From Promethearchaeota archaeon (lineage in GTDB: Archaea; Asgardarchaeota; Odinarchaeia; Odinarchaeales; JBHLKK01), in NCBI GenBank assembly GCA_048939465.1, contig JBHLPL010000001.1, positions 60,001 through 92,000 of the forward strand: DNA of 32,000 bases, written 5' to 3'. A program made the translations under genes and the position numbers. Below, piece by piece: positions 493 through 26,488 of the stretch; the stretch's first letter is position 1, and every line of letters begins with the position of its first letter. Under the pieces are notes generated by a model. It was not told the DNA's origin, did not search any database, and was given only the letters and a program-made list of their open reading frames with translations.

Positions 493-1488
493 TCATCGGA
501 TCATCACTATGAGTTTGATGGGACTGGCCAGATTCTTATCATTAACAAAAATGAGATCTCCTTCTTTCACTCCGGTATCTTTCAATACGATGCTATCCGG
601 GACAATCTTGCCCTCGATAATAATCTCAGGATTCTGAAGGCCATAGGTCATTATCAGCCTGTTTTTTAATTCTTGAATGGGTTCTTCCAGGTTCACGACA
701 TATTTGACGCCTACGGTGCGGTACTTAGGACTGCAAACAACACAGCTCGGATTACGGACAAGCCTAATCTTTGTAAAAGACTGGCTCAATCCATCGTAAA
801 ATAGATAGTTGTCAAGCAGATCCTTGCGTTCTAAAATAATCTTTAGCGTTTCTTGTGCTTGGATTCCTCCGACTACTGTAGTTGTTGTGGAAATCATTGG
901 AAATTTCTCCTTCTCTTGCTCTTTCTCTTTTCGCGCCTCTCCAGGAAGAGTACAGGCCTTCTGTAATCTTTCTTTTGGTATCAATGGTTGGCATTCCAGG
1001 CAGGGCGTTTCAAAGGGGATGATTACCTGAACGTTCCCCCACCAGCCAAATAATCCTCCATGAATTAGAGGCTTATTCAAGTGAACACACATGGAATTCA
1101 GCCATCTGCGTGCCTCAAAAGTATCTAAGCCTTCCACGATGACCGAACTTCTCTGGTAGACTTCTTTATCTATCGACCGCATATCCTTCATATAGGTACT
1201 TACCTTGACTTCCGGATTGAGTTTCTCAAGGAATTCCTCAGCAGCCTCCACTTTCAATCTTCCAATATCTTCTTCTCTGAAAAGTATTTGTCGGTTCAAA
1301 TTCGAAAGCTCAATTGTGTCGTTGTCTATAAGAATCAACTTTCCTATTCCCATCAACGCCAGATCAAGAGCAACTACCGAGCCTAAAGCCCCCACTCCTA
1401 CGACCAAAACCGTTGAATTGCGAATCAATCCTTGGTCCCATTCTTCGAGAAGTTCCTGTCTATGATAACGACCTTCTCCTTCTTTCAA
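493..1488 (-). CDS. Ubiquitin-activating enzyme E1 (ThiF/MoeB/UBA fold with C-terminal ubiquitin-fold domain)
   Basis: RYHRQ, GVGALGS nucleotide-binding loop, DNDTIELSNLNRQ, Zn pairs CLEC/CVVC, putative catalytic Cys in ACTLPG, C-terminal beta-grasp-like segment. Start refined to TTG 1488 (SD GGAGGGG, TTGA overlap with E2 stop); ORF track starts at 1515. Confidence 0.93.
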   Translation of the reverse strand: MKEGEGRYHRQELLEEWDQGLIRNSTVLVVGVGALGSVVALDLALMGIGKLILIDNDTIELSNLNRQILFREEDIGRLKVEAAEEFLEKLNPEVKVSTYMKDMRSIDKEVYQRSSVIVEGLDTFEARRWLNSMCVHLNKPLIHGGLFGWWGNVQVIIPFETPCLECQPLIPKERLQKACTLPGEARKEKEQEKEKFPMISTTTTVVGGIQAQETLKIILERKDLLDNYLFYDGLSQSFTKIRLVRNPSCVVCSPKYRTVGVKYVVNLEEPIQELKNRLIMTYGLQNPEIIIEGKIVPDSIVLKDTGVKEGDLIFVNDKNLASPIKLIVMIR

Positions 1489-1955
1489 GCCTGCCCCCTC
1501 CTGAGGTGTTTCCAAGTAGCATACCTTTTGATATACTCTTTTACTTTCTCCTTGAATTCTCTTGGCGACTCACGCATTTCCTTTGCAGCCACTCGATTCA
1601 GAGGGTCGTGAGGGTTGGGAAAGCTCAGGACGTTTCTTATGGCCTCGATTACGCCAACTAAATTTATGCTTGGAGACCAATCTTTCCCCAGAATGCCCAG
1701 ACATATTCTTCCCTCCCTGGTGATATTTGGATGCCAAATTGGAGTCAAGAACCGAGCTTTGGGAGGTTTAAATGGATAGCTTCTGTCTACTTCTAACTCG
1801 ATTTGGAAGACCCCTCCATCGTAAACACTGGTACCTAGAATGAATCCACGCCATTTTGTGAGGTCTCCACTTAGCGGTTGAAATGAAGGTTCCTCCTCCT
1901 CTATGCTCTTAGCTTCAAGTGCCAAGCGCTCTAAGAATGCCTCTCTGTCTAAAAT
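1485..1955 (-). CDS. Ubiquitin-conjugating enzyme E2 (UBC)
   Basis: YPFKPP, HPN and catalytic Cys (IWHPNITREGRICLGILGKDWSP), PNPHDPLN. Frame extends upstream of the TTG at 1925 through LDREAFLERL; start probably ATT 1955 (see findings). Confidence 0.95.
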   Translation of the reverse strand: MLDREAFLERLALEAKSIEEEEPSFQPLSGDLTKWRGFILGTSVYDGGVFQIELEVDRSYPFKPPKARFLTPIWHPNITREGRICLGILGKDWSPSINLVGVIEAIRNVLSFPNPHDPLNRVAAKEMRESPREFKEKVKEYIKRYATWKHLRRGQA

Positions 1956-2010
1956 CTTTCCATACCTCCCTCTGAATATGTAAAATCACAAAGAAATAAG
2001 TATGTGAAAA

Positions 2011-2024
2011 ATATTAAAACCTTA
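2011..2024 (-). promoter_or_regulatory. Putative BRE/TATA promoter of the E2-E1 operon
   Basis: Minus strand TAAGGTTTTAATAT, near-identical to TAAGGTTTAAATAT upstream of the SSB gene. Confidence 0.5.
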
Positions 2025-2101
2025 TAGTTCAGGATCGATCCTCCTGAATGATACGGCCTTCTATCCTCCAGATGAAAGATCCTAAGCGAAATAGAAAGTA
2101 T

Positions 2102-2344
2102 TTAAGGATCTCCTCCTTCGGTTCTAGTAATAAGATACACCTTATCTCTTTCGACGCACCCTGCTTCTTTAAGTGTCGTACTATCCAGCTGTTCCATACC
2201 TTTGAATGCAAGGACAAAGGTTGCTTCTGGTATACGTCTCTGTCTGGCAATTATTCTCTTGAGTTCACCGAATGAAATATTAGGCGCCACATCAAGTGTG
2301 GTCTTCATTCCACCAATTGCAGAGACAATCTCTACCTCCATCAT
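2102..2344 (-). CDS. Ubiquitin-like modifier (pro-form with GG followed by DP)
   Basis: 80-aa beta-grasp pattern ending YLITRTEGG-DP*; clustered with E1/E2/RING genes; SD GGGGTGA. Confidence 0.93.
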   Translation of the reverse strand: MMEVEIVSAIGGMKTTLDVAPNISFGELKRIIARQRRIPEATFVLAFKGMEQLDSTTLKEAGCVERDKVYLITRTEGGDP

Positions 2345-2359
2345 AAATCACCCCAATTA

Positions 2360-2599
2360 CTATTTTACCATAAGATGTCTAGTGGAGAGTTTTCTTTTGC
2401 AGAAGGGACATTGGCCCTTCGTCTTAACCCATTCCAGCAGTTCAATCTTGTGAGCTTGGCTTCCGCAGTATGGACAGTATATTGTCTTCTCGCCGGGTCT
2501 TATTGGCAGAAGGCAAACGATGCACCTTTCTGGCTCCCAAAGCCACTCTCCTAAGACTCTAACTTGCTTTATTACGAATCTGTCAGCTGCCTTCGACAT
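2360..2599 (-). CDS. Small RING-finger protein, putative E3 ligase
   Basis: C-x2-C-x12-C-x2-C-x4-H-x2-E-x3-W-x6-C-P-x-C; directly upstream of ubiquitin on the same strand; resembles archaeal small RING finger E3s. Confidence 0.85.
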   Translation of the reverse strand: MSKAADRFVIKQVRVLGEWLWEPERCIVCLLPIRPGEKTIYCPYCGSQAHKIELLEWVKTKGQCPFCKRKLSTRHLMVK

Positions 2600-2632
2600 T
2601 TAGTATCTCCAAAGAAGATTAATTAAGAACAC

Positions 2633-2742: not shown

Positions 2743-3474
2743 CTAACCCCCCAAAACCTCTTCAAACATATCAAGCAAAACATAGCGAGTTGAGGGATCA
2801 ATGGCAACAGTTCCATAAGTTGGCACACCCAATAGTCTTCCCACAAGTTCTGGGTCCAATGAGTGGGGAAGGTCTTGTTTGTTTGCAATTGCAACAACCT
2901 TTGCATCAGGAACACGTTCTTGGACGAGGCTCATGATTCTCTTCCTGGTCCTGGCTACACTCGTTACAGACGAGTCCGTAACAACGATGATAATATCTGA
3001 GCCCCTGATCATTACGTCCCAGAATCGACCAAATCGTTCTTGTCCAGCGAAATCCCACACGATCACTTTTACTGGCGTTTCCACCCCTTCGAGATTTTTG
3101 ATATTGACCATTAGGGTAGGAGTATGGTTTATGGGAACTTCTTCATCAAAAAGCAATTTCAGCAGTGTTGTCTTGCCTGCACCGCCAAATCCCAAAAAGG
3201 AGACCTTAATGATCCTCATTAGCTGGCTTACGGAAAGTCTCATCTTACAGAAGGGACATTTACCTTTGGTCTTAACCCATTCAAGTATTTCTCTTCTGTG
3301 AGCAATACATCCACAGTTTGGGCAGTCTATTGTCTTATCGTTAGGTCCTATTGGCAGAAGGCATACTATGCAATTCTTCGCTCCCACTTTTTCCACCCAG
3401 TCTTCCGATCTGTGGATATTGCAGAGCGTCAAATCGATTAGGAAATCCTGTCTCTCTTCACTGGGCCACCTCAA
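2743..3474 (-). CDS. RING finger-small GTPase (Arf/Rab-like) fusion protein
   Basis: RING (CIVC...CPNC...H..E...W...CPFC) in one frame with G1 GFGGAGKT, G2 PT, G3 WDFAGQ and G4 NKQD. The true start may be the later GTG (MGAKNC...). Confidence 0.85.
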   Translation of the reverse strand: MRWPSEERQDFLIDLTLCNIHRSEDWVEKVGAKNCIVCLLPIGPNDKTIDCPNCGCIAHRREILEWVKTKGKCPFCKMRLSVSQLMRIIKVSFLGFGGAGKTTLLKLLFDEEVPINHTPTLMVNIKNLEGVETPVKVIVWDFAGQERFGRFWDVMIRGSDIIIVVTDSSVTSVARTRKRIMSLVQERVPDAKVVAIANKQDLPHSLDPELVGRLLGVPTYGTVAIDPSTRYVLLDMFEEVLGG

Positions 3475-3701
3475 ATCTTACAAGATTTTGTAGCCTAACT
3501 ACATAATTGACACTTGTAGTATAAAAGATTTGTGATGCGCTATTAATTCACAGCAAAGAAGTGTGTAAAACACGGTAACCCGCGGTTTCTTTGTTTAGAG
3601 TGAGTTGAAGGTACGATTAAATCTCCTTTGAGTAATTGAGTACTACGAATGTTTTTAAGTATTCTACTACAAATATGTATTGCGTTTGTGAGGGACTGAA
3701 T

Positions 3702-4184
3702 TTGAGCAGTTCAAAGCGGAAGCAATTTGAGATAAAGCTTGAAGTAATCAAAACTCCTAAGGGTGAAGTTCCCACGGTCAAAAGCTTAAGGCAGGTAGTT
3801 ATGGGTCTAAATGAATTGAATAGTGATATCGTTAATGTGAGGTCTCAGATTATGGGGGAAATAAAGGATTTAAAGCGTGATGTTACCGCAGTAAAGAAGT
3901 TGCTTGCCGAAGAGGCGGTTACTTTTGATGCCATCAATGAGAAGTTCACAGACCTTAACAACAGCTTGGAGTCTCTATTAAAGCAAAAAACAGATGATAA
4001 AACCCTGAAGGCTGTTAAGGGGGTAGGGGCTACTCTAAACTCTCTTGAGACTCAGCTTTCTGAAATGGCGAAAAATGTGAAAGATGGACTTGCGGAACAG
4101 GCCAAAAATGTTGCTAATGCCGTAGGCAAACTCTACCTTTTCCTTGAAAAGGCAGAAGAAGGAAAGAAGAAAAAGACCTCCTAG
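3702..4184 (+). CDS. Hypothetical coiled-coil protein
   Basis: Heptad-rich body after a short N-terminal beta-rich head (FEIKLEVIKTPKGEVPTV). Start refined to TTG 3702 (SD GAGGGA + 6 nt); ORF track starts at 3636. Confidence 0.75.
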   Translation: MSSSKRKQFEIKLEVIKTPKGEVPTVKSLRQVVMGLNELNSDIVNVRSQIMGEIKDLKRDVTAVKKLLAEEAVTFDAINEKFTDLNNSLESLLKQKTDDKTLKAVKGVGATLNSLETQLSEMAKNVKDGLAEQAKNVANAVGKLYLFLEKAEEGKKKKTS

Positions 4185-4194
4185 GCCTCTCTTA

Positions 4195-5229
4195 TTATGT
4201 GTAAAATCTATCTCTCTGTCTTTGTCTCTCTTCTAAGAAACTCACAAAGTCACTTAGGGTCGGATCATTCTCAAGTTCGTCGTGAATCAGTTCGGCTACG
4301 CTCAGAATTGATGCTGCAACATGTGCCTTGACTTGTTGTGTTTTCTTGTCGTCGGGCTTCAGGAAACTCATTATTCTTTTTTGAAACTGCTGTAGAGTCA
4401 GCAACCTATCAACCAAAAGACCGAATGATTTCATAATGTTCTCTCTTGTGGCTGAAGCATCCTCCTTTATTCCTACTGCTTCCATGGCACGAAGACATGG
4501 ATATAATATCTCAGAGCCAAACCAATTTACCAGAAGGCCTCTTTTGTCTATGGTCTTGAGAAAAACCGATAGTGGAATCCCAAGTTCTTTTATTCTATTC
4601 TTCGCCAGCTGGGCCGCTTTTTCTAGCCCTACTTCATGTGTGGCCTTAAGAACCCCTACCATGATTGAACTGACGGCAATGGAAAGAACCCTCCTGAGAT
4701 TGTTGGCTTCCAACAGCTTGTTGATTAGCTCCTTTGCTTCATCCAGATTAATGTCTGATATGACAAATGATTTTACGATTTCCAAAAGCTGACCTCTGAC
4801 CTCTAAGCTTTTCCCGTAACCTGTTCCGTCCAGGGCAAGTAGAGTATAGGCAGTCTCAAGTATTTCTTTATCAAACCATTGCACGACCAGGTATTCATTT
4901 GTAACCCTTCTCAAATCTGTGGCGGTCTTAACGTCTTTGAGTATATGTGCTAGCCGTTCAATAAACGTTTCAAAAATCGCAACTATGTATTCTTGGACAT
5001 TTGCGTCTATTCCGTATCTCTTCAACTCTTTTTTTATAATCTTTCTAAAGCCGGACTCGGTTATCTCTCCCTTCAAGTATTTAATGAACGGAGCAAAAAG
5101 ATCTTTTTTGAGATTGTCCAAAGAGGGCGGCTTGAGTTCCCTGACTAGCCTCTCAGTCATTCCCCACACTATGAAATAGTAGAAGTCTCCCATTGCCTTA
5201 TAGTATTCGCTAGCGAATTCCTCACCCAA
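4195..5229 (-). CDS. Hypothetical all-alpha protein, downstream partner of the HerA-like ATPase
   Basis: Long ORF with helical amphipathic pattern. Start refined to TTG 5229 (SD GAGGTGA + 7 nt), 7 nt after the ATPase stop. Confidence 0.75.
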   Translation of the reverse strand: MGEEFASEYYKAMGDFYYFIVWGMTERLVRELKPPSLDNLKKDLFAPFIKYLKGEITESGFRKIIKKELKRYGIDANVQEYIVAIFETFIERLAHILKDVKTATDLRRVTNEYLVVQWFDKEILETAYTLLALDGTGYGKSLEVRGQLLEIVKSFVISDINLDEAKELINKLLEANNLRRVLSIAVSSIMVGVLKATHEVGLEKAAQLAKNRIKELGIPLSVFLKTIDKRGLLVNWFGSEILYPCLRAMEAVGIKEDASATRENIMKSFGLLVDRLLTLQQFQKRIMSFLKPDDKKTQQVKAHVAASILSVAELIHDELENDPTLSDFVSFLEERQRQRDRFYT

Positions 5230-5236
5230 TTGCTGC

Positions 5237-7843
5237 TCACCTCTCATCAATGAGGTTTATCAGAGTATTCAAGAGTTCGCAGAACTTCCTGGCGTCTTCT
5301 TCGCTAGATGATACACCGACAAGAGATGCGATAGCGATTCTGTTGTTCTTTGCCGAAGTAATGGCAATTCTCAAGTTTCCCTTTCCAGCCAAAATTACAG
5401 GTATCTCCTCATCTGATGGCACACTATCGATTGTCCAATTCTTGGATTTCAGTAAATCATGGATCTCCTGCAGGACTACTTGAGGTTCCTTGGATACTTT
5501 CTTGTGACAAGTCTTGGAATATACCTTGATATCACTTGGGAACAAATGTTCGTGATATCTATACCTCATAAGTCTATTTAGAAATCTTTTTAACATGTCA
5601 TCTGGAACATCAAGGGTCTTCGGTGCTGGTATTTCATAAGATCCGGCCGCTGCCACTTTTTCTGAGTCTTCGGGGTTGGCCCCTTCTTCAATGACTTCTT
5701 CGTCAGGTATTGCATATTCAATAAGCTTTGGAGATGCTTCTCTTCCGGCATGCTGACTTGTTCTGGGTCGAATTCTCAAAACAAATCCCCGGTTCGTAGT
5801 TAGTCTGGTTGACTGATCCATTATTATGGGGGTTCCAACTGGAAGGCTTCTTATGAAACTCGACTTTGAAATTTCTTTGGGAATCTCTGCCGGGGATCTT
5901 TTCATGAGTGCCTTAATATCATCTGCATAAGTCAAGTTGTGAGCAATCAGAATATCTACTTGAGAGAGGATACGGGCGTCAGTTGCTGCTGGTTGTTGGG
6001 TACACAACAACAGCCCACATCCCGGTTTTCTGCCTTCTTTAGCGTAATCAATGAGGGGCTCAGAAGCAATTGTCTCTCCATCTGAAGGGACTACTTGCTG
6101 GGCTTCGTCTATTAGAAGCCAGGTTACTGGTATCTTTTCTTCTATATCCCCATATCCGAGATGTTTTGCCTCAATCGTTCTGGAGATCTTCTTTCGCTCT
6201 CTTAGGATCTTCCGTGCAAGAATCCCAACTACCAACTCCCGGATACTGTCCCCCAGAAAGCTTACATCTACTATAGTAATCTGATTTGGAACAACTATTT
6301 CGTTGAATGCTGTCCCTTTCTTAGAGAATATCCCCCATTGTTTGGCGGATTCCAGTCTAGAAATAACGGCTCTTCGAGTATCAAGTCTGAATCCTCCTTC
6401 CTTGGAAAGGATTTCCGTATCATCTTGAACGCACTTTATCATATCGTCAATAGTGTAATCTTCTCCTTTACCATCAATACGCATTCGGTTTCCATAGGCA
6501 TCCACCACGGAATAGCCGTCTCTAACCTTATTGACTACTCTTCCGGTCAGAAAACCTCTTGGACTGGACTGCTCCAGTTTAAAGAGATAACACCAATCAT
6601 CTGCAGTAAGCTCACCAGGCTTTATCGAGAATGCATCATCTCTTGTTTGTTCTGGAATCTGATGGAATAATCCTACAGGAACTAGGACCTGAACGTTTGA
6701 ATATCCCTCTGGGTCTAGTTTCCATTCCCCAAGATTCTCTAGCTCGTCCTTCTCCCAGTTCGGATATTTCATGCTCCAAAATATGCCCATCGGATCAACT
6801 ATCACAACAGCTATCCCGAGACCACATCTAGCTAGTTCTTCAGCAATGACTCCGAGTGTGTATGATTTTCCGGATCCCCGATGGCCGCATATGAAAATAA
6901 CGTGGGGTTTCACTGCGTCTACCAGTACCTTACGGCCGAAATACCCTTTACCGCCAGCAGGTTTTTCGCAGATCCTCCCAATATACAAAGTCCCACGACA
7001 TCCAAATTTCTCTTGAAATTGCTTGGTCCTCCCAACAATAACTGACTCTCCGAGACAGTCATCAAGGAGTCTCAGCTCCTCCTTCATTGCGGGGCTGTAT
7101 TCAACAGGAAACGATTCCTCCTTGAGGACTCTCATCTCCCCCCTTACGTGGTTGATGAGCATCTGCAGTTCTTCTATACTTCTCGGAGGTATGGTCAGCA
7201 TGCTTTCTATATATTTCCGAAGCTTATCCTTCTTTGGATAGTGCCCAGAGGAATATCCTGAGAGTTCCCACAGCATAAGCTCGATAGTCTCTTCTTTCGT
7301 CAGCCCCTCAAAAGGCACTGCGTCAACTGAAGCGGTGTCCAGAAATTTTGAATCACCCAACGCGAGGTACAAAAGGAGGGACGCATTTATCCTATCGTTT
7401 CCGTCGAATTCCTTCAGCATACTGATAGCATTCTCTAGGTATCTCGGTTCTTTTTTCACGTTATATGCCTGAAGAAGTATGCGAAATCGATGTACGTCTA
7501 TCTTGTTGTTAGATAGTGCGTAATCATATACCTTCTTCTCAGCCTCGTCAATATTTATTTCTAAGGCTCCCGAGGCTCCTTTCAATGCTTGAATGGTTTC
7601 CCAGGTATTCTTCAAAGGATCATCCTGAAATGCCCATTCCCCGGATGGTAATTGTGAGGAGAGAATGTCTTCGACAATGATTGATGCTATTTCCAGAAAG
7701 ACAAGGTCTTTTGTCATCTGATAGACTCGTACGCATGCATCGACGAGGAACGGTCTATCAACAGCTCTTGCGGATTCGGCACTGAAACTTGTTATGTAGT
7801 CTAGGATATGTGGTAATATTTCACATAGAGGTCTTCCATGCAA
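5237..7843 (-). CDS. HerA/FtsK/VirB4-superfamily ATPase (DUF87-type) with extra N- and C-terminal domains
   Basis: Walker A GHRGSGKS, VIVDPMG, Walker B WLLIDEAQ, EGRKPG arginine finger and TQQP. About 260-aa helical N-terminal extension and about 160-aa C-terminal extension. Confidence 0.88.
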   Translation of the reverse strand: MHGRPLCEILPHILDYITSFSAESARAVDRPFLVDACVRVYQMTKDLVFLEIASIIVEDILSSQLPSGEWAFQDDPLKNTWETIQALKGASGALEINIDEAEKKVYDYALSNNKIDVHRFRILLQAYNVKKEPRYLENAISMLKEFDGNDRINASLLLYLALGDSKFLDTASVDAVPFEGLTKEETIELMLWELSGYSSGHYPKKDKLRKYIESMLTIPPRSIEELQMLINHVRGEMRVLKEESFPVEYSPAMKEELRLLDDCLGESVIVGRTKQFQEKFGCRGTLYIGRICEKPAGGKGYFGRKVLVDAVKPHVIFICGHRGSGKSYTLGVIAEELARCGLGIAVVIVDPMGIFWSMKYPNWEKDELENLGEWKLDPEGYSNVQVLVPVGLFHQIPEQTRDDAFSIKPGELTADDWCYLFKLEQSSPRGFLTGRVVNKVRDGYSVVDAYGNRMRIDGKGEDYTIDDMIKCVQDDTEILSKEGGFRLDTRRAVISRLESAKQWGIFSKKGTAFNEIVVPNQITIVDVSFLGDSIRELVVGILARKILRERKKISRTIEAKHLGYGDIEEKIPVTWLLIDEAQQVVPSDGETIASEPLIDYAKEGRKPGCGLLLCTQQPAATDARILSQVDILIAHNLTYADDIKALMKRSPAEIPKEISKSSFIRSLPVGTPIIMDQSTRLTTNRGFVLRIRPRTSQHAGREASPKLIEYAIPDEEVIEEGANPEDSEKVAAAGSYEIPAPKTLDVPDDMLKRFLNRLMRYRYHEHLFPSDIKVYSKTCHKKVSKEPQVVLQEIHDLLKSKNWTIDSVPSDEEIPVILAGKGNLRIAITSAKNNRIAIASLVGVSSSEEDARKFCELLNTLINLIDER

Positions 7844-7885: not shown

Positions 7886-8500
7886 TCATGACCTGCTTTC
7901 CTTTAGTTTCTTAATTTCTTTTTCCAGCTCTGAGACCTTCTTCTCCGGTGCTGGAAGAGCAATACCTGTTTCAACAGTTATCTCCTGATCGATTTCGGTC
8001 AACGTTTTTTCAATTTCCTTATCACTAATCTCTTGCGAAACCGTGATTTCGAGTCCTGATTCAGCGATCTCTTTCGACACCTCAAATTGCTGTAGCTGAC
8101 CTTCAACTTCTTTAATCAATTTGGCTATCTTTGGTACCTTCACAGCGTTCTTAAGTCCCCCAAGGACGTTACGGAGACTACCTAATATTTTGGACAAATC
8201 AGTAACAGATTCGCTTTGTCTGAGTTTTACAATTAGTCCCTCTATGGTCAATCTGTAGTTGTCAATGCCAACTGCCCACTTCTGAAATTGCAGGTAATGC
8301 TTTGCGTACGTCTTTGCAGCCTCATTATTGCCCTTGATACGTTGAGTTCGAGCTTTAGTACGGCTCTTGTCGCCTTCTCTTTCCAGTTGCATCCTTTGTC
8401 TATCGAGTTTCCGTGTGAGCAAATCCAACTGAAAAATGGCCTTCTCAAGCCTTTTTCTCTTAGACCCCCCTAACCAGTCAAACAAACGGCCTAACGACAA
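7886..8500 (-). CDS. ESCRT-III subunit, Vps2/24/46 class
   Basis: N-terminal amphipathic helix (LGRLFDWLGG), basic helical hairpin, acidic C-half, terminal MIM1-like ELEKEIKKLK; divergent from Vps4. Confidence 0.88.
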   Translation of the reverse strand: MSLGRLFDWLGGSKRKRLEKAIFQLDLLTRKLDRQRMQLEREGDKSRTKARTQRIKGNNEAAKTYAKHYLQFQKWAVGIDNYRLTIEGLIVKLRQSESVTDLSKILGSLRNVLGGLKNAVKVPKIAKLIKEVEGQLQQFEVSKEIAESGLEITVSQEISDKEIEKTLTEIDQEITVETGIALPAPEKKVSELEKEIKKLKESRS

Positions 8501-18827: not shown

Positions 18828-19352
18828 CTACTCACTCTGGGTTTTCAACTTCGTAAAAAGTTGCTTTAACTCCATGTTTAGTGCTCTTCGGACATTTACT
18901 GGACTGATAGGTATTGCGGGTCTGGGCGGCTCAGCTGCTCCTTGTGCGGCCACAGGAGTAGCTCCGCCTGTAGCTGCGGGTGCAACTCCAGGAGCAGTAG
19001 CGGGGGTAGGTGACGGTGAAGCTGAGGCAGACGTAGAGGCTGGAGCCGTTGGCGATACTGCTGAAGGTCTTATTGCGGTCTCTGCAGGTTTCCCAGCGGC
19101 CCCTTGGGAAACGGTACTTGCAGTGACTGGAAGAGAGACTCGAGACTCAATCGAGTTAATCCTACTCTCTATTACGCCTATTTTGATTTCGAGGTTCTTG
19201 GACAGACTATTCAGGTTTTGCTCCAGCATATCAATGGCGTTTATAACGATTTCCATAACTCTGCTTAGTATCGTACTAATTTCCTGGATACGCTTTGGTT
19301 GTGACAGCGTTTCATCAATAAGCCTTACGAAGTCTTCTCCCATATCGAACAC
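18828..19352 (-). CDS. Hypothetical protein: coiled coil + Pro/Ala-rich linker (contains PTAP) + C-terminal amphipathic helix
   Basis: Heptads IDMLEQNLNSLSKNLEIKIGVIESRINSIESRV, low-complexity linker, terminal VNVRRALNMELKQLFTKLK. Likely start ATG 19343. Confidence 0.75.
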   Translation of the reverse strand: MFDMGEDFVRLIDETLSQPKRIQEISTILSRVMEIVINAIDMLEQNLNSLSKNLEIKIGVIESRINSIESRVSLPVTASTVSQGAAGKPAETAIRPSAVSPTAPASTSASASPSPTPATAPGVAPAATGGATPVAAQGAAEPPRPAIPISPVNVRRALNMELKQLFTKLKTQSE

Positions 19353-19367: not shown

Positions 19368-20210
19368 CTAAACTTTGCGGTTTATAATCTTTTCTTTTGT
19401 ATGACTAATAATCATCGCTGTCTTTTTCCCTTCTTCTTTCCTCCTGTCCGAGGCAACCTCGTGGTTAGTGTTTTGGGTCTCTTTTGCTTCCATCTTCTCC
19501 CCCGAGATCTCTTCCTTTCTTTTCTCCTTGGTTATGAATGAACCCCAATCTATTCTGAGCATCAGATAGACCAATAGAATCGTTCCCAAAATTCCTATCA
19601 CGGTACCTGCTGTGCCCCCGCCTCCAAATAATGCTTCAACCAGCGGCCGGAAAAACCTCCCTCCGTAAGCCAAGATTGCGCATAGAACTATCTTCCCCAA
19701 AATGGCTGCGACAACCGCTTTGACAATGCTATACTTCATTACGCCTACAGGGATAAGAAGCATATCATCAGGTAAAGGCGTAGCTGCGAACAAGAATATT
19801 GCTGCAAATCCATACTTCTCAATTAACTTCTTCATGGATTCTATTCTCTTACCGTATTTTTCTTCGATTAGCTCCCTTCCTCCCCGCCCTATCGCATAGG
19901 CGCTCAATTCTCCAATAGCTGCGCCAAATCCGCAGACTAATGCAAGTATCAGCGGCTCAATAAACTCCTGGGTTCCCAGAAGGATTACAGCCAGAGCGTA
20001 GGGAACGGGTAGGAAAACTGTGAAGTTGCCAAAGGTGGATATTAGGAAGGCCCCGAAATAGACAGACAGTGGACTTCCCACAGCAAAGTTGAACATCCCA
20101 ATCGTTAAGCTGTCAAAGAAATTGGCAATAGCTTCTATTGAAAACAGAACCACCAATGCTATTCCGGTGATTACAAAAGCTATTATGAAAATAATGTCTC
20201 GACGTTCCAT
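19368..20210 (-). CDS. DedA/VTT (SNARE-associated Golgi protein) family membrane protein
   Basis: FLPVPY, GFGAAIGELSAYAIGRGG, FLFAATPLPDD...G.MKY motifs. Confidence 0.88.
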   Translation of the reverse strand: MERRDIIFIIAFVITGIALVVLFSIEAIANFFDSLTIGMFNFAVGSPLSVYFGAFLISTFGNFTVFLPVPYALAVILLGTQEFIEPLILALVCGFGAAIGELSAYAIGRGGRELIEEKYGKRIESMKKLIEKYGFAAIFLFAATPLPDDMLLIPVGVMKYSIVKAVVAAILGKIVLCAILAYGGRFFRPLVEALFGGGGTAGTVIGILGTILLVYLMLRIDWGSFITKEKRKEEISGEKMEAKETQNTNHEVASDRRKEEGKKTAMIISHTKEKIINRKV

Positions 20211-20280: not shown

Positions 20281-21246
20281 ATGACTATTTCCACTCCGAA
20301 TTCTCCGTTAACCTTGATGGAGGATATACTGCTGGCAGAGCTTAAGGCCCTTGTAGAAATAATTCGGTTGCCCAATTGCCTCATGGGTAGCTTGACCACG
20401 TCGATTTCCGTATTGACAGTAGACAGCATCCTAGACCTGACAGCCGGAGTAAGCCTGTCCGCTGTTAGCCTCATCTGGTTGCTTGTTATTGCCTATATTA
20501 CTTACGTCTTTGCAGCGGCTGCAGGGAACGTTGTAAATGACGTATTCGATATCGAAGTAGACAGGATAAATCGGCCAAATCGGGTGCTTCCAAGAAGAGC
20601 ACTAACTGTGCGTCAAGCTAAGATATACACAATTCTGCTTTGGCTGGCCTGTTCATTCTGCGCCTTCTTAACAAGCATCCCGGCTGGAATTATTGCTACA
20701 ACCTTTTCACTAGTTGGTTTCGGTTATGCATCAAGGGCCAAACTGCTAGGAATATGGGGGAACTTCACCGTTTCGTTTTCTTTTGCCTTTGGTTTGATTT
20801 ACGGCTCTCTAATAACTTATTATGCCGCTTTGGGCACGCTGGGTCTCCCCCTCCTAATATGGCTTTACTTCTTCACGGCGTTCTTTATCCTTCAGGGCAG
20901 AGAAGTGATTAAGGGGATGGAGGATGTTGAGGGTGACCGAGTGAGGGGTGTGAAAACCGTAGCTTTGGTTTACGGCTTTAGGAGGGCATCTATCGTGGCT
21001 GCTCTTTTCAATATCATAAGCATGATTTGCTTCACAGCCGCGTGGTTTCTGAGTTGGTCCGGCTGGTCGTCCTTACCAAATATCTGGTACACCGTTTTTC
21101 TATTACCCGGCGATGGTATTGTGCTGGCTTCTACAATCTTGATCTTAATGAAATCATCTTCATCTTCAGCTCAGAATAGAGCCAGTTTCTATTCCAAAAT
21201 AGGAAGTCTCCTAGGTCTGTTGGCATTCTTGGTAGGAGCACTATAA
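20281..21246 (+). CDS. UbiA-family prenyltransferase, probable digeranylgeranylglyceryl phosphate (DGGGP) synthase
   Basis: IIRLPNC, GNVVNDVFDIEVDRINRPNRVLP (NDxxDxxxD), GREVIKGMEDVEGD, multiple TM helices. True start probably at or after ATG 20317. Confidence 0.85.
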   Translation: MTISTPNSPLTLMEDILLAELKALVEIIRLPNCLMGSLTTSISVLTVDSILDLTAGVSLSAVSLIWLLVIAYITYVFAAAAGNVVNDVFDIEVDRINRPNRVLPRRALTVRQAKIYTILLWLACSFCAFLTSIPAGIIATTFSLVGFGYASRAKLLGIWGNFTVSFSFAFGLIYGSLITYYAALGTLGLPLLIWLYFFTAFFILQGREVIKGMEDVEGDRVRGVKTVALVYGFRRASIVAALFNIISMICFTAAWFLSWSGWSSLPNIWYTVFLLPGDGIVLASTILILMKSSSSSAQNRASFYSKIGSLLGLLAFLVGAL

Positions 21247-21463: not shown

Positions 21464-22321
21464 ATGATTCATTCGGTTTATGTAATCCGAAGGACAGGAG
21501 AATGCCTATTCTCCAGAGTATATGATAAGAACGGAATCGACGAAGCCCTAATATCCGGCTTCTTAAGCGCTCTACAATCTTTCATAAATGAAATCAGTGG
21601 AGATTATGTAAGGACTCTGAAAACTGGAAATGTGAAATTTGTCTATAATTTACTGGATGATCTGATATTCGTATTCTGCGTCGATCTAGAAGAAGATGAG
21701 GAAAAACTGAGAAAGAAGATAAATCTCACTCAGAGTGTCTTCGTAAGGAGATTTGGCAGCATAATAGAAGGCTGGAATGGTCAAACCAGCATCTTCGAAT
21801 CCTTCAATGTAACAGTAGATGACATTGTTACAGATCTCGTAAAGGTATCCGTAATTGGATTTGGGGGTGTCGGTAAGACGACTCTCCTCAAGCTTATTCT
21901 AAGGGAAGAAGTTCCCGTACAACACATTCCAACAATAGCGGTTGATATCAAAGATCTTAACGGTGTAAAATCCCCGGCAAAGGTGGTCATGTGGGATTTT
22001 GCTGGACAACAGCGTTTTGAATCCCTTTGGGATGTGATGATTAAAGGCTCAGACGTTATTCTAATTGTTACGGATTCTTCCATGTTAAATATAGTAAAGA
22101 CCAAGAAAAAAATCATCTCCCTCATTAAAGAGCATAATCCCGGCGCGAGAGTTATTGCTATTGCAAACAAACAAGACCTTCCGAATTCGATAAAGCCAAG
22201 AGCAATTAGTGACCTTCTAGGCGTACCGGTTTATGGAATTGTCGGCATAGACCCTTCAAATCGAGGGCAATTGCTTGAGATAATAGGCGATACTGTTAAT
22301 AGCTGGCTAGAATATTCATAA
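21464..22321 (+). CDS. Longin domain-small GTPase (Arf-like) fusion
   Basis: N-terminal MIHSVYVIRRTGECLFSR...LISGFLSALQSF longin pattern; G1 GFGGVGKT, G3 WDFAGQ, G4 NKQD. Confidence 0.88.
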   Translation: MIHSVYVIRRTGECLFSRVYDKNGIDEALISGFLSALQSFINEISGDYVRTLKTGNVKFVYNLLDDLIFVFCVDLEEDEEKLRKKINLTQSVFVRRFGSIIEGWNGQTSIFESFNVTVDDIVTDLVKVSVIGFGGVGKTTLLKLILREEVPVQHIPTIAVDIKDLNGVKSPAKVVMWDFAGQQRFESLWDVMIKGSDVILIVTDSSMLNIVKTKKKIISLIKEHNPGARVIAIANKQDLPNSIKPRAISDLLGVPVYGIVGIDPSNRGQLLEIIGDTVNSWLEYS

Positions 22322-22367: not shown

Positions 22368-23120
22368 ATGTTTCTTGTGGGGGCCGTAGGAGACATTCAT
22401 GGACCGAAGTATCTATACCTGTTTAAGAATGGACTAAGCTCACTAAAAGGAAATGTCTTAGACGATATTAATTGTCTATTTTTTGCCGGCGATATCATAT
22501 CAAAAGGCCATACTGAAGATCTCCAAGCGGTAATAAGGACCATCGATGACTTTGAAGTTAGATGTCCTTTGATCTCCTGCTTCGGTAACGAGGAGTATGA
22601 AGAAACGCATAACATAATACGAGAGAAATTCGGCAGTAGGGTTACATTCCTGGATGATGAGTCTTTTGTCTTGAACCTGAAAGACGATAGGACACTAGGG
22701 ATTGTGGGATCTAAAGGGAGTCTAGATCGACCCACATGGTGGCAAAGTAGGAATATTCCAAACATCCTTCAGATATATTCTCAGAGAATCAGTGTAATAG
22801 GTGGTCTCCTTCAGAAATTGAAGACTGATTTCAAGATCTTACTCCTACATTATGCTCCGACTTTCAAAACATTAGGTGGCGAAGGAAGAACTTTTTACCA
22901 GCAATTAGGAAGCAAAAAGCTTGAGACTATAATCAGCAGAAGCAAACCGGACGTAGTTATCCATGCCCATGCCCACAATGGACGCAGATTTGCCCTTTTG
23001 GGTGAGATTCCTATATACAACGTTTCTCTTCCTCTTACCCGGACAATCACAGTCATAAAACTACCGGGATTTGCTATCTCCGATTCCTCGGAAGATAATA
23101 AGGAAGAATATACATCATGA
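22368..23120 (+). CDS. Calcineurin-like metallophosphoesterase
   Basis: GDIHG, AGDII, FGNEE, LLHYAP, HAHAH motifs. Confidence 0.88.
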   Translation: MFLVGAVGDIHGPKYLYLFKNGLSSLKGNVLDDINCLFFAGDIISKGHTEDLQAVIRTIDDFEVRCPLISCFGNEEYEETHNIIREKFGSRVTFLDDESFVLNLKDDRTLGIVGSKGSLDRPTWWQSRNIPNILQIYSQRISVIGGLLQKLKTDFKILLLHYAPTFKTLGGEGRTFYQQLGSKKLETIISRSKPDVVIHAHAHNGRRFALLGEIPIYNVSLPLTRTITVIKLPGFAISDSSEDNKEEYTS

Positions 23121-23399: not shown

Positions 23400-25205
23400 A
23401 TGAAGACTGTGAGAATCTGCAATTTTTGTGGAAGCAGAGAAGCAACTCATTATTGTGAGGAGTGTGGAGCCTCATTCTGCAGCAGGTGCGCAAGAAAGAA
23501 GAAGATCCAAATTAGCATATGTGTAAATTGCGGTGCATCTGTTGACAAACTCAGAAAACAGAGTAGTATTACGGCCTGCAATGACTGTAATCCGTCAAGC
23601 ACAAAATCTGCGATAAAATACATAACCCTATGCCCTGATTGCTCTTCAAAGACGGTAGTACGCATCAAGAAAAAAAACCATGATTTGTTGATCAAACTCA
23701 AAAGTGCAGTTTCAAGTCTTATATCCGGCTACTATATCCTAAAACAATTTTTGGCTGAAGTGAATACCGTACGGCGCAGGATAGTAGCAATGAGGTATTA
23801 TGGATTTAGACAGTATCCTGAACTCGAAAAGACATTGATTGCTGTCTATTCTGAAGTTCATACGTTGGGTCAGAACTTTGTCAATACAGTATTCAAAACA
23901 TTACAGGGAGTAGATTCTGAATTGCTTGTGGTTCTAAGGAAGAGACCATGGGACTCCAAAGATTTTCCCTCGGTAGAATCTCTGACAGAACAACTTAGAA
24001 AAGATGGACAGATGACTCAGAAAGACTTGATGAACAGACTAACTGATTTAAGACAGCTATTTATCGACCTTCTTCCTCTAATTGGGTCTCTGGAGTACTT
24101 CAGACAAGTGTACGATAGCATAGGGGAGCATTTAATCCTTGATAAGTATGAGAGAATCATCTGTGCGTTTAGCAAGGTGTCTCTGTCATCGAACTCATCC
24201 AAGCGGAGCAAGAATAACGGAACCTTGGTTCTTACAAACCGCAGAATAGTTCTTCATCAACAAGCAAAGGGAAAAGGGGCTTTCAATGTAATTGGGGCAA
24301 GATTGACTGATTTAAACTCCTATCATGTCGATGAAACAGATGGAAGAATAACTCTGGAAACAACGAATGGTAGAACGGAGTTCCTTGTTTCACAGAATGC
24401 TGCGAGTTTATTCAAGAGATCTCTAGAGGTAACCGACCGATACGACGGGAATTTAGTAGATTTGGATCGCTTAAATCGTCTCATTAATATCCAGTGGGTT
24501 TCTTCGGAGTTATATCGTCTGAATAAGAAACTGCAGCTAGAGGTTCTCAATGTGCTGGGGGAGAAACCCAGACTTCTCGATTCAGCAGTTGTTGCTACAT
24601 CTGTCTTTAGAGAGTACTCAAATGACACTCCTGAGCCACCGCAGGAGGGGCCAAATGTCTCGTTTGGGATCAAGAAAGACGATCCCAAAGAGGCCATGAA
24701 TTCGGAATCTTATAAGGGAACCAAGCCGGCAGGCGTTATTCGTCGCATTGTGAATTTATTTAAGAATAATAGAAATCGTGAATTATCCGATCTAGTTCTG
24801 GAAATTGGCAGAAAGAACAGAACCAATACGGGCGGGATGGTTCCTTTAGCTGAAGTGTACCTATCGATAAAAGAACTCAGACCTAATCGGAACATCGATG
24901 TTGAGGAAGTTGAAAAAGCAATTGAAACACTTAAAGAAAAAGGACTTATAGTTGATTTTAGGGAACATAACTCTGGAATAAAAGTTGTTGAGTTCTTTCC
25001 ATTAGAGTTCAGTAGTGATAAGAATACTGTTATAGATTTGGCAGCAGAAAGAGGTCACCTGACGCTTGAGGATGTCATACGCAATACGGGATGGTTAGGG
25101 GTCAGAGCTGCAAGAGCACTTAAAGGGTTAGAGAAAATTGGGATAGCCAAGCTTGACCCTACATATTCTAGGGGAAAGCGTTGGTATTTCCCATACCTGA
25201 AATGA
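23400..25205 (+). CDS. Vps36-like protein: B-box-like/Zn fingers + helical region + PH/GLUE-like segment + EAP30 tandem winged helix
   Basis: Six CxxC pairs at the N-terminus; GTLVLTNRRIVL; C-terminal ~140 aa collinear with the local Vps22 (TGG.., I.VE.V.KAI, TGW...R..RAL, DP.YSRG..(W/Y)YFP.L). Confidence 0.75.
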   Translation: MKTVRICNFCGSREATHYCEECGASFCSRCARKKKIQISICVNCGASVDKLRKQSSITACNDCNPSSTKSAIKYITLCPDCSSKTVVRIKKKNHDLLIKLKSAVSSLISGYYILKQFLAEVNTVRRRIVAMRYYGFRQYPELEKTLIAVYSEVHTLGQNFVNTVFKTLQGVDSELLVVLRKRPWDSKDFPSVESLTEQLRKDGQMTQKDLMNRLTDLRQLFIDLLPLIGSLEYFRQVYDSIGEHLILDKYERIICAFSKVSLSSNSSKRSKNNGTLVLTNRRIVLHQQAKGKGAFNVIGARLTDLNSYHVDETDGRITLETTNGRTEFLVSQNAASLFKRSLEVTDRYDGNLVDLDRLNRLINIQWVSSELYRLNKKLQLEVLNVLGEKPRLLDSAVVATSVFREYSNDTPEPPQEGPNVSFGIKKDDPKEAMNSESYKGTKPAGVIRRIVNLFKNNRNRELSDLVLEIGRKNRTNTGGMVPLAEVYLSIKELRPNRNIDVEEVEKAIETLKEKGLIVDFREHNSGIKVVEFFPLEFSSDKNTVIDLAAERGHLTLEDVIRNTGWLGVRAARALKGLEKIGIAKLDPTYSRGKRWYFPYLK

Positions 25206-25250
25206 TGTTGAAGAAATCTCTTGAGAAAGCCCATCAGCCTGGCTTTTGGT

Positions 25251-25694
25251 TCATCGCCTTCCCTCGCGGGAACGGCGGTAAGATCCCCTACTGTAGGGTC
25301 TTCGTCTTGGTCTAAATCGGTCCTGTTCATATTGTTTTTCGGAGAGATTGTTCTCTGTGTTTACATCGCCAAACTCGGCATCCTCAAATGACTCAATCGT
25401 ACCATATCTACCGATATTTAATCGCAAGGATCCCTTGAATACTGTACAGTATCCGTTGTTGATTTTGTATATCTGATCTATTTCCACCTTGTCAATGTCC
25501 TGATTCCAAAGAGTTAAGTACACGCTACCAGTCTCGTCACCCACCAGAGCTTCGGTGACTCTTAGTTGTTCACCTGTCTTTCTTGAGAATACCTCTCTTG
25601 CCTCATTCTTAGAGGCTACCTTAACTTTTACGTTTACACCTCTAGAGTTCGGATTTAGCTCTTCTACGACTACAAATTCCTCAGATTCGCTCAT
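25251..25694 (-). CDS. ssb: Single OB-fold ssDNA-binding protein (crenarchaeal SSB/RPA type) with Arg-rich tail
   Basis: VNVKVKV...EALVGDETGSVYLTLWN...LRLNIGRYG; tail RFRPRRRPYSRGSYRRSREGRR. Start refined to ATG 25694. Confidence 0.88.
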   Translation of the reverse strand: MSESEEFVVVEELNPNSRGVNVKVKVASKNEAREVFSRKTGEQLRVTEALVGDETGSVYLTLWNQDIDKVEIDQIYKINNGYCTVFKGSLRLNIGRYGTIESFEDAEFGDVNTENNLSEKQYEQDRFRPRRRPYSRGSYRRSREGRR

Positions 25695-25800
25695 TTTAGT
25701 TACATCTCTATTCATATACTTTGTTCGTTTAACAAGGATAGCAAAACAAGTCCCTAGAGCAAGTTTTACATCCTTAAGCGGTATCGGGTTAGATTCCAAG

Positions 25801-25814
25801 ATATTTAAACCTTA
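25801..25814 (-). promoter_or_regulatory. Putative BRE/TATA promoter of the SSB gene
   Basis: Minus strand TAAGGTTTAAATAT. Confidence 0.5.
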
Positions 25815-25840
25815 CTATATGGAAGAAATAGCTTTCTCGA

Positions 25841-26488
25841 TTACTCTTTTTCTTTTTCCTCTTCTGGTATGTCTTCTTTAAGCCCTTTCTTAATATCTTC
25901 AAGTTCCTTCCGTATTTTGTCCTTCTTCTTTTCAGCGACAGCCTTCTCTTTTTCGGTGGGAATCTCAGGTAACTCTTCTTCTATGGCCACTTCCTCTTGA
26001 AGTTTTGCTAACTCCCTCTCTACGTCAATGTCTTCGCCTTCATCCAAAGCTGTGGCACTTAACATCTCACTGGTTTTCTCTATCTCATCAACCAGTTGTT
26101 CAGTTTTTAGCATAACTTCAGTAGCTTTCTCACTTGACATAAGTCTTCTTGCTTCTTCAAGTTGTTCAAGACCAACTTCAAGGGCACGTCCCATGTCGGC
26201 AGTATCTCTAGCAGTCTCGATCATATCAATAACATCTTCTAGGCTGCCTACCTGTCTATGATAACGATTCATCCATGTGGTATATCTTTTCCATTTTCGA
26301 AGATGTGTCCTTGCCCCATCTGTGTTTCCTTGCCTTACAAGCTCTCTTGCTCTCTGCTTGCTTTCTCCTGCCTTTCTTTCAAATCCACGAACTCTGAGTG
26401 TCATCTTGTTGATTGTTGCACGCATTTCTGTAACTGCTTCGTCTCTGCTTTCCTTTTTCTTGGGGAATAGCTTCCTCAGAAAACCCAA
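25841..26488 (-). CDS. ESCRT-III subunit, Vps20/32/60 (Snf7) class
   Basis: MGFLRKLF amphipathic helix, G...AR..LRK.KRY hairpin, IETA, DIDVERELAKLQEE...ELPEIP, MIM-like IRKELEDIKK. Confidence 0.88.
   Translation of the reverse strand: MGFLRKLFPKKKESRDEAVTEMRATINKMTLRVRGFERKAGESKQRARELVRQGNTDGARTHLRKWKRYTTWMNRYHRQVGSLEDVIDMIETARDTADMGRALEVGLEQLEEARRLMSSEKATEVMLKTEQLVDEIEKTSEMLSATALDEGEDIDVERELAKLQEEVAIEEELPEIPTEKEKAVAEKKKDKIRKELEDIKKGLKEDIPEEEKEKE

Follow-up and report, generated by a model that had tools for sequence, protein, structure and literature searches.

Gene content of the ubiquitin-ESCRT locus

The window, a stretch of 32,000 nucleotides (G000:C138:60001-92000), comes from a contig of 96,683 bp, the largest in a metagenome-assembled genome (MAG) of an uncultured Asgard archaeon. 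The MAG comprises 1,964,118 bp in 152 contigs at 43% GC, with an estimated completeness of 91% and contamination of 3.8%, and DNA of the locus was found in metagenome runs labelled mangrove and sediment. [quoted passage not shown] This stretch is very probably a single complete ubiquitin-ESCRT locus of an archaeon in the order of Odinarchaeum, in another GTDB family than the hot-spring archaeon Odinarchaeum LCB_4, and gene-for-gene homologous to the LCB_4 cluster. The supercluster itself is the already published state for the lineage. Less ordinary are the conserved extra genes, chiefly a HerA-type ATPase and a Vps36-like subunit.

All long open reading frames (ORFs) of the window were scanned with Pfam hmmscan. 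The components listed in the original prediction (E1, E2, ubiquitin, two RING proteins, Vps23, Vps28, Vps22, Vps25, a Vps36-like protein, ESCRT-IIIA, ESCRT-IIIB and Vps4) are all present where it placed them, as judged by Pfam and by sequence and fold matches to PDB entries. The left part holds the ubiquitylation cassette, entirely on the minus strand. A 340-residue E1-like protein of the ThiF/MoeB type (493..1515; PF00899 1.1e-67 over residues 23-259) is 46% identical to its LCB_4 orthologue and overlaps by 31 nt the E2 ubiquitin-conjugating enzyme (1485..1925; PF00179 (UQ_con) 6e-38), in which the HPN motif locates at residue 65 and the catalytic cysteine at residue 75. The ubiquitin-like protein (2102..2344; PF00240 8.8e-7; 29 bits, cut-off 25.4) terminates in GG-DP, and a C-terminal processing protease is therefore required. 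It is accompanied by a small RING-finger protein, a candidate E3 (2360..2599; zf-RING_2 29.5 bits, cut-off 27.3), and by a RING domain fused to an Arf/Rab-like GTPase (2743..3474; Arf 2.3e-20, RING 25.5 bits and under cut-off). The RING of this RING-GTPase is 67% identical to the free RING protein, and its G domain is 59% identical to the longin-domain GTPase encoded further right. By these identities the protein is a chimera built from copies of two genes of this very cluster, found in this genus only and exemplifying local domain shuffling; no such fusion occurs in the LCB_4 locus.

ESCRT-I is represented by a Vps23/Tsg101-like protein (16312..17109, minus; UQ_con 5.7e-17, UEV 8e-7), whose UEV domain has a serine at the catalytic cysteine position and which ends in a CdvA-like coiled-coil stalk, and by Vps28 (15484..16290, minus; PF03997 8.2e-17, profile positions 2-188 of 188). 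For ESCRT-II, Vps22 (14737..15483, minus; PF04157 (EAP30) 2.5e-16) and Vps25 (9840..10586, plus; PF05871 2.8e-12) were found, the latter with an acidic N-terminal extension and an LCB_4 orthologue solved as the tandem winged-helix chain 7pb9_A. Both ESCRT-III genes match Snf7 (PF03357) and were assigned to a class via their best solved relatives. ESCRT-IIIA (7886..8500, minus; 8e-14) falls in the Vps2/24/46 class, nearest CHMP1B, CHMP2A and CHMP3, and has a conserved, MIM1-like C-terminal helix. ESCRT-IIIB, at the right end of the cluster (25841..26488, minus; 7.5e-20), falls in the Vps20/32/60 class, with Heimdall ESCRT-IIIB (9ftl_A, 2.9e-17) and the Vps20/32/60-like 9fn1_U (1.1e-11) as best relatives. 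Vps4 (8662..9825, plus; AAA 7.5e-42, MIT 4.3e-12, Vps4_C 1.5e-12, AAA_lid_3 6.5e-16) is oriented divergently from ESCRT-IIIA.

Just two genes of the 1,964,118-bp genome match the Snf7 family, and both of them are inside the window. A tblastn search of the whole genome found no second copy of ubiquitin, E2, Vps22, Vps23, Vps25, Vps28 or Snf7 outside the window, and elsewhere yielded only extra ThiF, Cdc48-like and small-GTPase paralogues. The genome thus has one copy of each ESCRT gene, all of them located in the window; the clustering is total and not a matter of chance.

A HerA-type ring ATPase beside ESCRT-III

Next to ESCRT-IIIA, and on the same strand, lies a gene for a HerA/FtsK-superfamily ring ATPase, which we refer to as HerA868 (5237..7843, minus; PF01935 1.3e-13). 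Its structural model (pLDDT 80) consists of a 12-helix N-terminal domain, a barrel with the ATPase core, a disordered linker (residues 698-735) and a C-terminal alpha/beta domain. The core superimposes on 4d2i_B with Z 33.0 and a root-mean-square deviation (rmsd) of 4.0 over 342 aligned residues, has a Foldseek match to 9x1m_A at 4e-15, and also matches DndH, VirB4 and FtsK. HerA868 thus has the same barrel and RecA-type core as the HerA hexameric translocases of the FtsK/VirB4 superfamily (HerA-NurA, 4D2I, 9X1M), with Walker A and B motifs that are intact and invariant in the family. It differs from HerA-NurA by the additional N-terminal 12-helix and C-terminal alpha/beta domains and by its neighbours: no NurA was found beside it, and ESCRT-IIIA and a helical protein without a family flank it instead.

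Residues 1-245 of HerA868 have no Pfam match. An alpha/alpha toroid was considered for the N-terminal domain and kept as a lead only (Atlas 0.83, prenyltransferase/squalene-cyclase), because its Z values of 11-13 are in the chance range for helical repeats. A tandem MIT domain was also considered and found no support.

The helical neighbour, unk351 (4195..5250, minus), overlaps HerA868 by 14 nt and appears to be its operon partner. It has no family match in Pfam, PADLOC, NCBIfam or Atlas and no nuclease or Sir2 signature.

In order to follow these genes beyond the window, we mapped the ESCRT neighbourhoods of about 20 further genomes with all window proteins, searched 301 Asgard genomes for HerA868 and Vps4, and screened the collection, with each species represented by a single genome, for the ATPase family. 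Full-length relatives of HerA868, at 33-45% identity, directly adjoin an ESCRT-III gene in many Asgard lineages. Freyarchaeia, among them G040 with its closed genome, and some Jordarchaeia have the order IIIA-HerA-unk351-IIIB. Other Jordarchaeia, the Helarchaeota genome Hel_GB_B and three further families show IIIA-HerA-IIIB, and family f3 shows IIIA-HerA. In Heimdallarchaeota, HerA is followed by an unk351-like gene and then by a Snf7 gene (PF03357, 54 bits); the resemblance of this partner to unk351 is weak, while in Freyarchaeia and Jordarchaeia unk351 holds the same place after the ATPase. In G040 and G011, the regions examined showed no ESCRT-III genes other than those of the HerA operon, and this operon lies 750 kb from Vps4-Vps25 or on another contig. 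No HerA868 orthologue was found in four genomes of the LCB_4 family. The most economical reading of this distribution is that much of Asgard would have inherited the HerA module from an ancestor and that the small LCB_4-type genomes would have lost it, rather than its having been inserted here.

The Helarchaeota locus (Hel_GB_B, SUPR01000004.1 = G239:C128), together with the related locus in G296, offers a close comparison for this part of the window. Its order is IIIB- HerA- IIIA- / Vps4+ Vps25+ / Vps22- Vps28- Vps23- CC182- / RING, ubiquitin, E2, E1 in about 17 kb, CC182 being a small coiled-coil protein described below. From HerA through Vps23, these genes stand in the same sub-order as in the window. 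In contrast to the window, ESCRT-IIIB remains beside the ATPase and CC182 beside Vps23, and the locus has neither the helical partner gene, the Vps36-like fusion nor interleaved lipid or GTPase genes. We notice that the G296 contig, DATKTP010000243.1 (= G296:C243), is titled ‘Candidatus Deferrimicrobium sp.’ and carries an Asgard-type ubiquitin-ESCRT locus.

The core of HerA868 alone (residues ~250-707) is pan-archaeal at 45-49% identity and has no ESCRT neighbours outside Asgard. It matches proteins of 800-1300 residues in Methanofastidiosa, Hadarchaeota, Thermoplasmatota, Theionarchaea and several DPANN lineages, and its identity to these pan-archaeal proteins exceeds that to the full-length Heimdall relatives.

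We infer the function of HerA868 from gene position alone. The main text of Makarova et al., 2024 (PMC10936438), whose supplementary tables were covered in part, makes no mention of HerA, FtsK or P-loop in this connection, and a full-text literature search returned no relevant paper on a link between such an ATPase and ESCRT-III.

A Vps36-like fusion protein

The Vps36-like protein has 601 residues (23400..25205, plus; EAP30 1.8e-11, Vps36 GLUE 22 bits and under cut-off). In its AlphaFold model (pLDDT 73), three zinc ribbons (residues 1-88) are followed by long helices (89-241), a PH domain (253-349), a disordered segment (390-455) and a tandem winged helix (457-596), so that the architecture of Vps36, a PH/GLUE domain combined with a tandem winged helix, is present in the model. 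Foldseek retrieved 3cuq_A (Vps22) at 3.0e-7, 3cuq_B (Vps36) at 2.3e-5, the yeast chain 1u5t_A and many helix-PH proteins. The PH domain of Vps36 (2cay_A) was retrieved as well, with a TM score of 0.57 and an rmsd of 3.8 over 113 columns (E 0.0096).

The two halves of the protein are encoded by separate genes in all 28 of the other Asgard genomes sampled. The N-terminal ~370 residues align to proteins of ~500 residues with zinc ribbons, a coiled coil and a PH domain (Znr-CC-PH), and the C-terminal ~150-220 residues align to the Asgard Vps22 of ~250 residues. Of 5.8 billion protein clusters, three were found to contain the full-length form, all at least 64% identical and all from this genus. With the local Vps22 the winged-helix pair shares 37% identity, and with Vps22 of other lineages 42-43%, so that it did not arise by recent copying of the gene nearby. 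The protein is a genus-restricted fusion of a Znr-CC-PH protein and a Vps22-type winged-helix pair. Because the fusion is lineage-specific, it represents a parallel invention and not an orthologue of eukaryotic Vps36.

Both sources of the fusion are published Asgard families, Znr_CC_PH_SB (cog.011556) and Vps22# (cog.002769) (Makarova et al., 2024, PMC10936438). Here they form one polypeptide, and the winged-helix pair replaces the steadiness-box tail. Compared with eukaryotic Vps36 (3CUQ chain B, 2CAY), the fusion shares a PH/GLUE-type domain, zinc fingers (as in yeast), a helical region and a tandem winged helix. It differs in that the winged-helix pair is nearer to Vps22, the zinc ribbons are N-terminal to the PH domain instead of inserted in it, and a long coiled coil is present. 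No Vps36 had been found in Asgard archaea, and an undiscovered partner was proposed for the monomeric Odin Vps22 (Hatano et al., 2022, PMC9192718). The fusion leaves this puzzle unsettled because it is absent from LCB_4.

A third Vps22-like match, interrupted by one in-frame TAG, was seen in two closed Asgard genomes (G027:C1:2041277-2041696 and G017:C1:2343305-2343724). It could be a pseudogene, a case of recoding or a split gene.

Comparison with the LCB_4 cluster and soundness of the assembly

According to the original prediction, Asgard ubiquitin-ESCRT clusters are often partial or split. This understates the published state for the present lineage, in which a single cluster of Odinarchaeum LCB_4 comprises the full set (Hatano et al., 2022, PMC9192718). 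In our collection the counterpart is G003, a closed genome of 1,418,269 bp that belongs, by genome kinship, to the same order as the genus of the window and to a different family. Its Vps25 matches 7pb9_A (‘Tandem WH domains of Vps25’) with 388 bits over 170 residues. As 7pb9_A is the crystal structure from Odinarchaeota LCB_4 (Hatano et al., 2022, PMC9192718), G003 represents Ca. Odinarchaeum yellowstonii, either LCB_4 itself or a strain nearly identical to it.

We compared all window proteins by tblastn with 80 kb each of G003 and the LCB_4-type genome G004. The G003 locus reads, over about 16 kb, Yip1 / E1- E2- Ub- RING- / CC182+ Vps23+ Vps28+ Vps22+ / Vps25- Vps4- / IIIA+ IIIB+ / SSB+ / longin-GTPase- / UbiA- / DedA(VTT)+ cc174+ P-loop GTPase+. 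All 12 core genes have orthologues in this one locus. The common core includes E1, E2, ubiquitin, RING, Vps23, Vps28, Vps22, Vps25, Vps4, ESCRT-IIIA and ESCRT-IIIB, and the common neighbours are Yip1, CC182, the single-stranded-DNA-binding protein (SSB), the longin-GTPase, UbiA, DedA, cc174 and the P-loop GTPase. Protein identity ranges from 32 to 64% (P-loop GTPase, 50%).

The window has the shared gene set and the relative strands of G003 after two adjacent in-place block inversions, of [Vps23..ESCRT-IIIA] and of [ESCRT-IIIB..P-loop GTPase]. The inversions parted ESCRT-IIIB and CC182 from their usual partners, CC182 from the Vps23 operon. The P-loop GTPase, cc174, DedA, UbiA, longin-GTPase and SSB genes look interleaved because the inversion moved ESCRT-IIIB to the far end; in LCB_4 they are mere flanks. 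Five items of the window are missing from the LCB_4 locus, namely the RING-GTPase, unk351 with HerA868, a 1318-residue surface protein, a metallophosphatase and the Vps36-like protein with its zinc-ribbon-PH (Znr-PH) part. The LCB_4 core is compact, with E1 to ESCRT-IIIB in 8 kb. The window therefore does not simply repeat the standard published arrangement: its gene content is published, and its gene order differs.

The contig is not chimeric, since it is collinear with contigs of other metagenomes and with two MAGs of the same genus. These MAGs represent two other species-level genomes and are collinear with window positions 3-27100. In one, G002:C60 spans the genes from Yip1 to the 1318-residue protein, and G002:C95 runs from the end of that gene past ESCRT-IIIB; in the other, G001:C54, C86 and C112 cover the middle of the cluster. 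Contigs from other runs bridge window positions 1-11224, 3241-7939, 12758-16405 and 16376-18573, and positions 4100-10600 are present almost whole in metagenome runs of several studies. The composition of the window is even, at 41-47% GC. At 18591-18829, between the P-loop GTPase and cc174 genes, contigs of two other runs skip 237 nt, and loose ends occur at 18769 and 18808 in three. This only unstable spot is probably a strain-variable insertion or deletion.

A membrane-anchored JAMM protein outside the cluster

The original prediction stated that no JAMM/Rpn11 deubiquitinase is present in the window, and neither a JAB nor a Prok-JAB domain appeared there in the Pfam scans. Across the genome, the search for JAMM proteases found an MPN+ JAMM on contig C7 and a Prok-JAB fragment at the end of C59. 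The former (C7:3790-4545; JAB 61 bits) is the sole eukaryote-type MPN+ JAMM of the genome and has an intact HSHx7SxxD motif and a C-terminal hydrophobic transmembrane anchor. Judged by these motifs, it is a candidate membrane-anchored deubiquitinase, encoded apart from the ubiquitin genes, and the obvious candidate for trimming the DP tail of ubiquitin. No homologue of it was detected in the mapped ubiquitin-ESCRT loci of other lineages. The families OTU, UCH, Peptidase_C97, Mod_r (PF07200, Vps37-type) and BRO1 have no match in the genome; for four of the five, Mod_r among them, the control genomes are equally silent.

Hennell James et al. are said to have described, in 2017, an E1/E2/RING/ubiquitin operon with an Rpn11-type JAMM in Caldiarchaeum subterraneum. 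The two systems share a compact eukaryote-type ubiquitylation cassette and a ubiquitin that needs C-terminal trimming. In the present genome, by contrast, the JAMM lies outside the cassette, on another contig, and is C-terminally membrane-anchored, and the cassette is linked to ESCRT genes.

The interleaved genes

Of the roughly 12 non-ESCRT genes, predicted to be enriched for ESCRT accessories, four are linked to ESCRT genes across Asgard classes: CC182, HerA868, unk351 and the metallophosphatase. For these the expectation holds, and for the others it fails.

CC182 (3636..4184, plus) is a small coiled-coil protein whose family alignment shows an invariant N-terminal TPxGxVPT motif followed by the coiled coil. 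Its homologues lie on the same strand directly upstream of Vps23 in G003/G004, G027, G007, G032, G239 and G296, that is, in LCB_4-type genomes and in families f3, f13, f15, f28 and f30 (six other families). By this gene order, CC182 appears elsewhere in Asgard as the first gene of a Vps23-Vps28-Vps22 operon, which makes it a positional candidate for a Vps37/Mvb12-type subunit. Homology of CC182 to the Vps23 stalk or steadiness box was considered and found no support, the profile-profile comparison with the Vps23 family giving a probability of 2.7%.

The metallophosphoesterase is calcineurin-like (22368..23120, plus; Metallophos 1.1e-10). In this genus, as in G026 and G016 of family f12, it lies directly 5' of the zinc-ribbon-PH gene, and the zinc-ribbon-PH gene is convergent with ESCRT-IIIB in many lineages, the window included.

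For the P-loop GTPase, DedA/VTT, UbiA, longin-GTPase and SSB genes, proximity to ESCRT genes is restricted to close relatives or is loose. The P-loop GTPase is cobW-like and has 447 residues (17164..18507, minus; cobW 6.2e-5; Atlas 0.99, ‘putative GTPase’). It is inside the cluster in family f15 as well (G032, 65% identity) and is an ESCRT neighbour in f1, f2 and f15. The UbiA-family prenyltransferase (20281..21246, plus; UbiA 4.5e-31) is nearest to the archaeal DGGGP-synthase type, with matches to NF009523 and NF009521 under their cut-offs. It is found 1-17 kb from ESCRT genes in Thorarchaeota, f12 and Freyarchaeia; the link is a loose one, and the gene is probably one of lipid synthesis. The DedA/VTT-family membrane protein (19368..20210, minus; VTT_dom 1e-13) has weak UptA similarity. 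The longin-domain small GTPase occupies 21464..22321 (plus; Arf 8.5e-18, Fuz_longin_1 5.1e-6), and the OB-fold SSB occupies 25251..25799 (minus; Ssb-like_OB 1.4e-16, PRK06461-type SSB 3e-38), adjoining ESCRT-IIIB in the LCB_4-type locus (G003) as well.

The 1318-residue protein is a type-I surface protein (10707..14663, plus; CarboxypepD_reg 9.4e-8) with a signal or anchor, Ig-like domains, a transmembrane segment at ~1118-1146 and an acidic/basic tail. Orthologues were found in G001 and G002 only, of the same genus, and the gene is a genus-specific insertion after Vps25.

In cc174 (18828..19352, minus), a Pro/Ala/Ser/Thr-rich linker connects a coiled coil with a conserved C-terminal helix. 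The protein has orthologues in G002, G003, G004 and G040. Its linker contains PTAP in the window and in G002 and PSAP in LCB_4; neither occurs in G004 or in Freyarchaeia. PTAP/PSAP is the classic UEV-binding motif, and its presence in a Pro-rich segment may be due to chance. A plus-strand ORF at 18808-19371 was dismissed as a gene, being a low-complexity Ala/Gly/Val frame antisense to the real cc174.

At the left flank of the cluster lies the C-terminal part of a Yip1/zinc-ribbon membrane protein (3..425, plus; Pfam Yip1 1.5e-12), whose gene starts upstream at C138:59640. It also adjoins E1 in LCB_4-type loci, at the same place in G003/G004. About 2 kb upstream of Yip1, an ORF (C138:56878-57834) has an N-terminus that, by eye, resembles P-loop ATPases of the ArsA/Get3 type, which serve tail-anchored protein insertion. 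No tRNA and no Rfam family was found within the window.

Discussion

Beyond the single locus, we tentatively suggest that Asgard ESCRT-III has an unrecognised ancestral second motor, a reading that we consider conceivable and short of probable. The motor would be the HerA/FtsK-type ring ATPase encoded between ESCRT-IIIA and ESCRT-IIIB, with a helical partner in several classes, acting on or through the ESCRT-III assembly and lost by LCB_4; the same proposal includes the independent origin, in this genus, of a third, Vps36-like subunit of ESCRT-II. By analogy with FtsK at bacterial septa, one possibility is that DNA or protein is moved through a constricting membrane neck.

The evidence bearing on the extra genes also has to be weighed against simpler explanations. 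It is unlikely that all interleaved non-ESCRT genes are passengers in a cluster broken by neutral inversions and insertions, even though much about the locus fits such a history. The compact 8-kb core of LCB_4 does without HerA, its partner, the Znr-PH protein, the metallophosphatase and the surface protein; the block from P-loop GTPase to SSB flanks that core and was made internal by inversion; the P-loop GTPase family is widespread in bacteria; SSB, UbiA and DedA resemble housekeeping genes; and the 1318-residue protein is confined to the genus. Passengers, however, would hardly account for HerA genes of 33-45% identity that directly adjoin ESCRT-III in eight or more Asgard families, an adjacency that persists where the operon is far from Vps4 or on a different contig. 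CC182 heading the ESCRT-I/II operon in six other families speaks against this explanation as well, and the Znr-PH module has itself been published as an ESCRT component of Asgard archaea (Makarova et al., 2024, PMC10936438). A little less likely again is that HerA868 and its partner form a two-gene anti-phage or DNA-repair module that came to lie beside ESCRT-III by chance or by the habit of defence islands. The PADLOC models HerA and mad8 match the ATPase at 1e-16, the nearest solved folds are HerA-NurA, HerA-Sir2 and HerA-DUF4297 complexes, a single partner gene is typical for HerA genes, and the pan-archaeal core is found outside Asgard away from ESCRT genes. Yet unk351 resembles no known defence partner by family match or by nuclease or Sir2 signature, NurA is not nearby, and the partner is missing in many lineages, where ESCRT-IIIB directly follows the ATPase. 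In contrast to defence islands, the module keeps its place between IIIA and IIIB from class to class, which looks like vertical inheritance.

An artificial join of ubiquitin, ESCRT and unrelated genes in a chimeric or mis-binned assembly has a negligible chance of being the explanation. The MAG is fragmented and carries some estimated contamination, and contigs of other runs show loose ends and the 237-nt skip at ~18591-18829; this variable spot, however, is intergenic and spanned by other contigs. The key junctions are bridged by contigs of other runs, the two congeneric species are collinear across the whole cluster, and the composition is even. Several points do weigh against our reading of the locus as one complete Odin-type cluster with ancestral modules. 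A completeness of 91% leaves room for a second ESCRT or deubiquitinase gene on an unassembled piece, and operon assignments rest solely on gene spacing, as no RNA run appeared among the public runs that contain this DNA. Loss in the LCB_4 family, as opposed to gain here, was judged from outgroup gene order without a rooted reconstruction. The submitters of a congeneric MAG record, JBHLKK010000112.1 (= G001:C112), labelled it ‘Candidatus Hodarchaeota’, which conflicts with the GTDB-based kinship to Odinarchaeum.

With the cluster read in this way, homology suggests how its products may work together. The C-terminal DP would be trimmed off ubiquitin, probably by the tail-anchored C7 JAMM. E1 would activate the trimmed ubiquitin and pass it to E2, from which it would be transferred to membrane proteins with the RING protein or proteins. 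The UEV domain of Vps23 would bind ubiquitin, and Vps23 would pair with Vps28, steps for which biochemistry exists on the LCB_4 orthologues (Hatano et al., 2022, PMC9192718), the other steps being modelled on homology. ESCRT-II, composed of Vps22, Vps25 and the Vps36-like protein with its membrane-binding PH domain and zinc ribbons, would then recruit ESCRT-IIIB. ESCRT-IIIA would join, and the polymer would be recycled by Vps4 via MIT-MIM contacts. The HerA-type ring ATPase would most likely serve as a second motor at or on the ESCRT-III assembly, with DNA or protein as its substrate.

As to origin, the locus may be described as an LCB_4-type cluster differing by two adjacent block inversions. 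It would retain modules that other Asgard classes kept and the streamlined LCB_4 family dropped, namely HerA with its helical partner and the metallophosphatase with the zinc-ribbon-PH gene. The 1318-residue surface protein, the RING-GTPase chimera and the zinc-ribbon-PH/winged-helix fusion would be additions of the genus.

A ubiquitin-ESCRT system in one locus is already textbook for Odinarchaeum, so the value of the present locus is comparative. Zaremba-Niedzwiedzka et al. were reportedly the first, in 2017, to show the single-locus cluster of LCB_4. The locus described here is a second and richer version of the Odin type, next to which LCB_4, the biochemical model, is a reduced case. Three of its items are relevant to efforts to reconstitute the archaeal forerunner of the ESCRT pathway of eukaryotes: the HerA ATPase linked to ESCRT-III, CC182, which heads the ESCRT-I/II operon in most lineages, and the Vps36-like fusion, a natural construct for probing the behaviour of a PH-bearing ESCRT-II. 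If the independent origin of the Vps36-like protein is true, the passage from a Vps22/Vps25 complex to a PH-bearing ESCRT-II would have been an easy evolutionary step.

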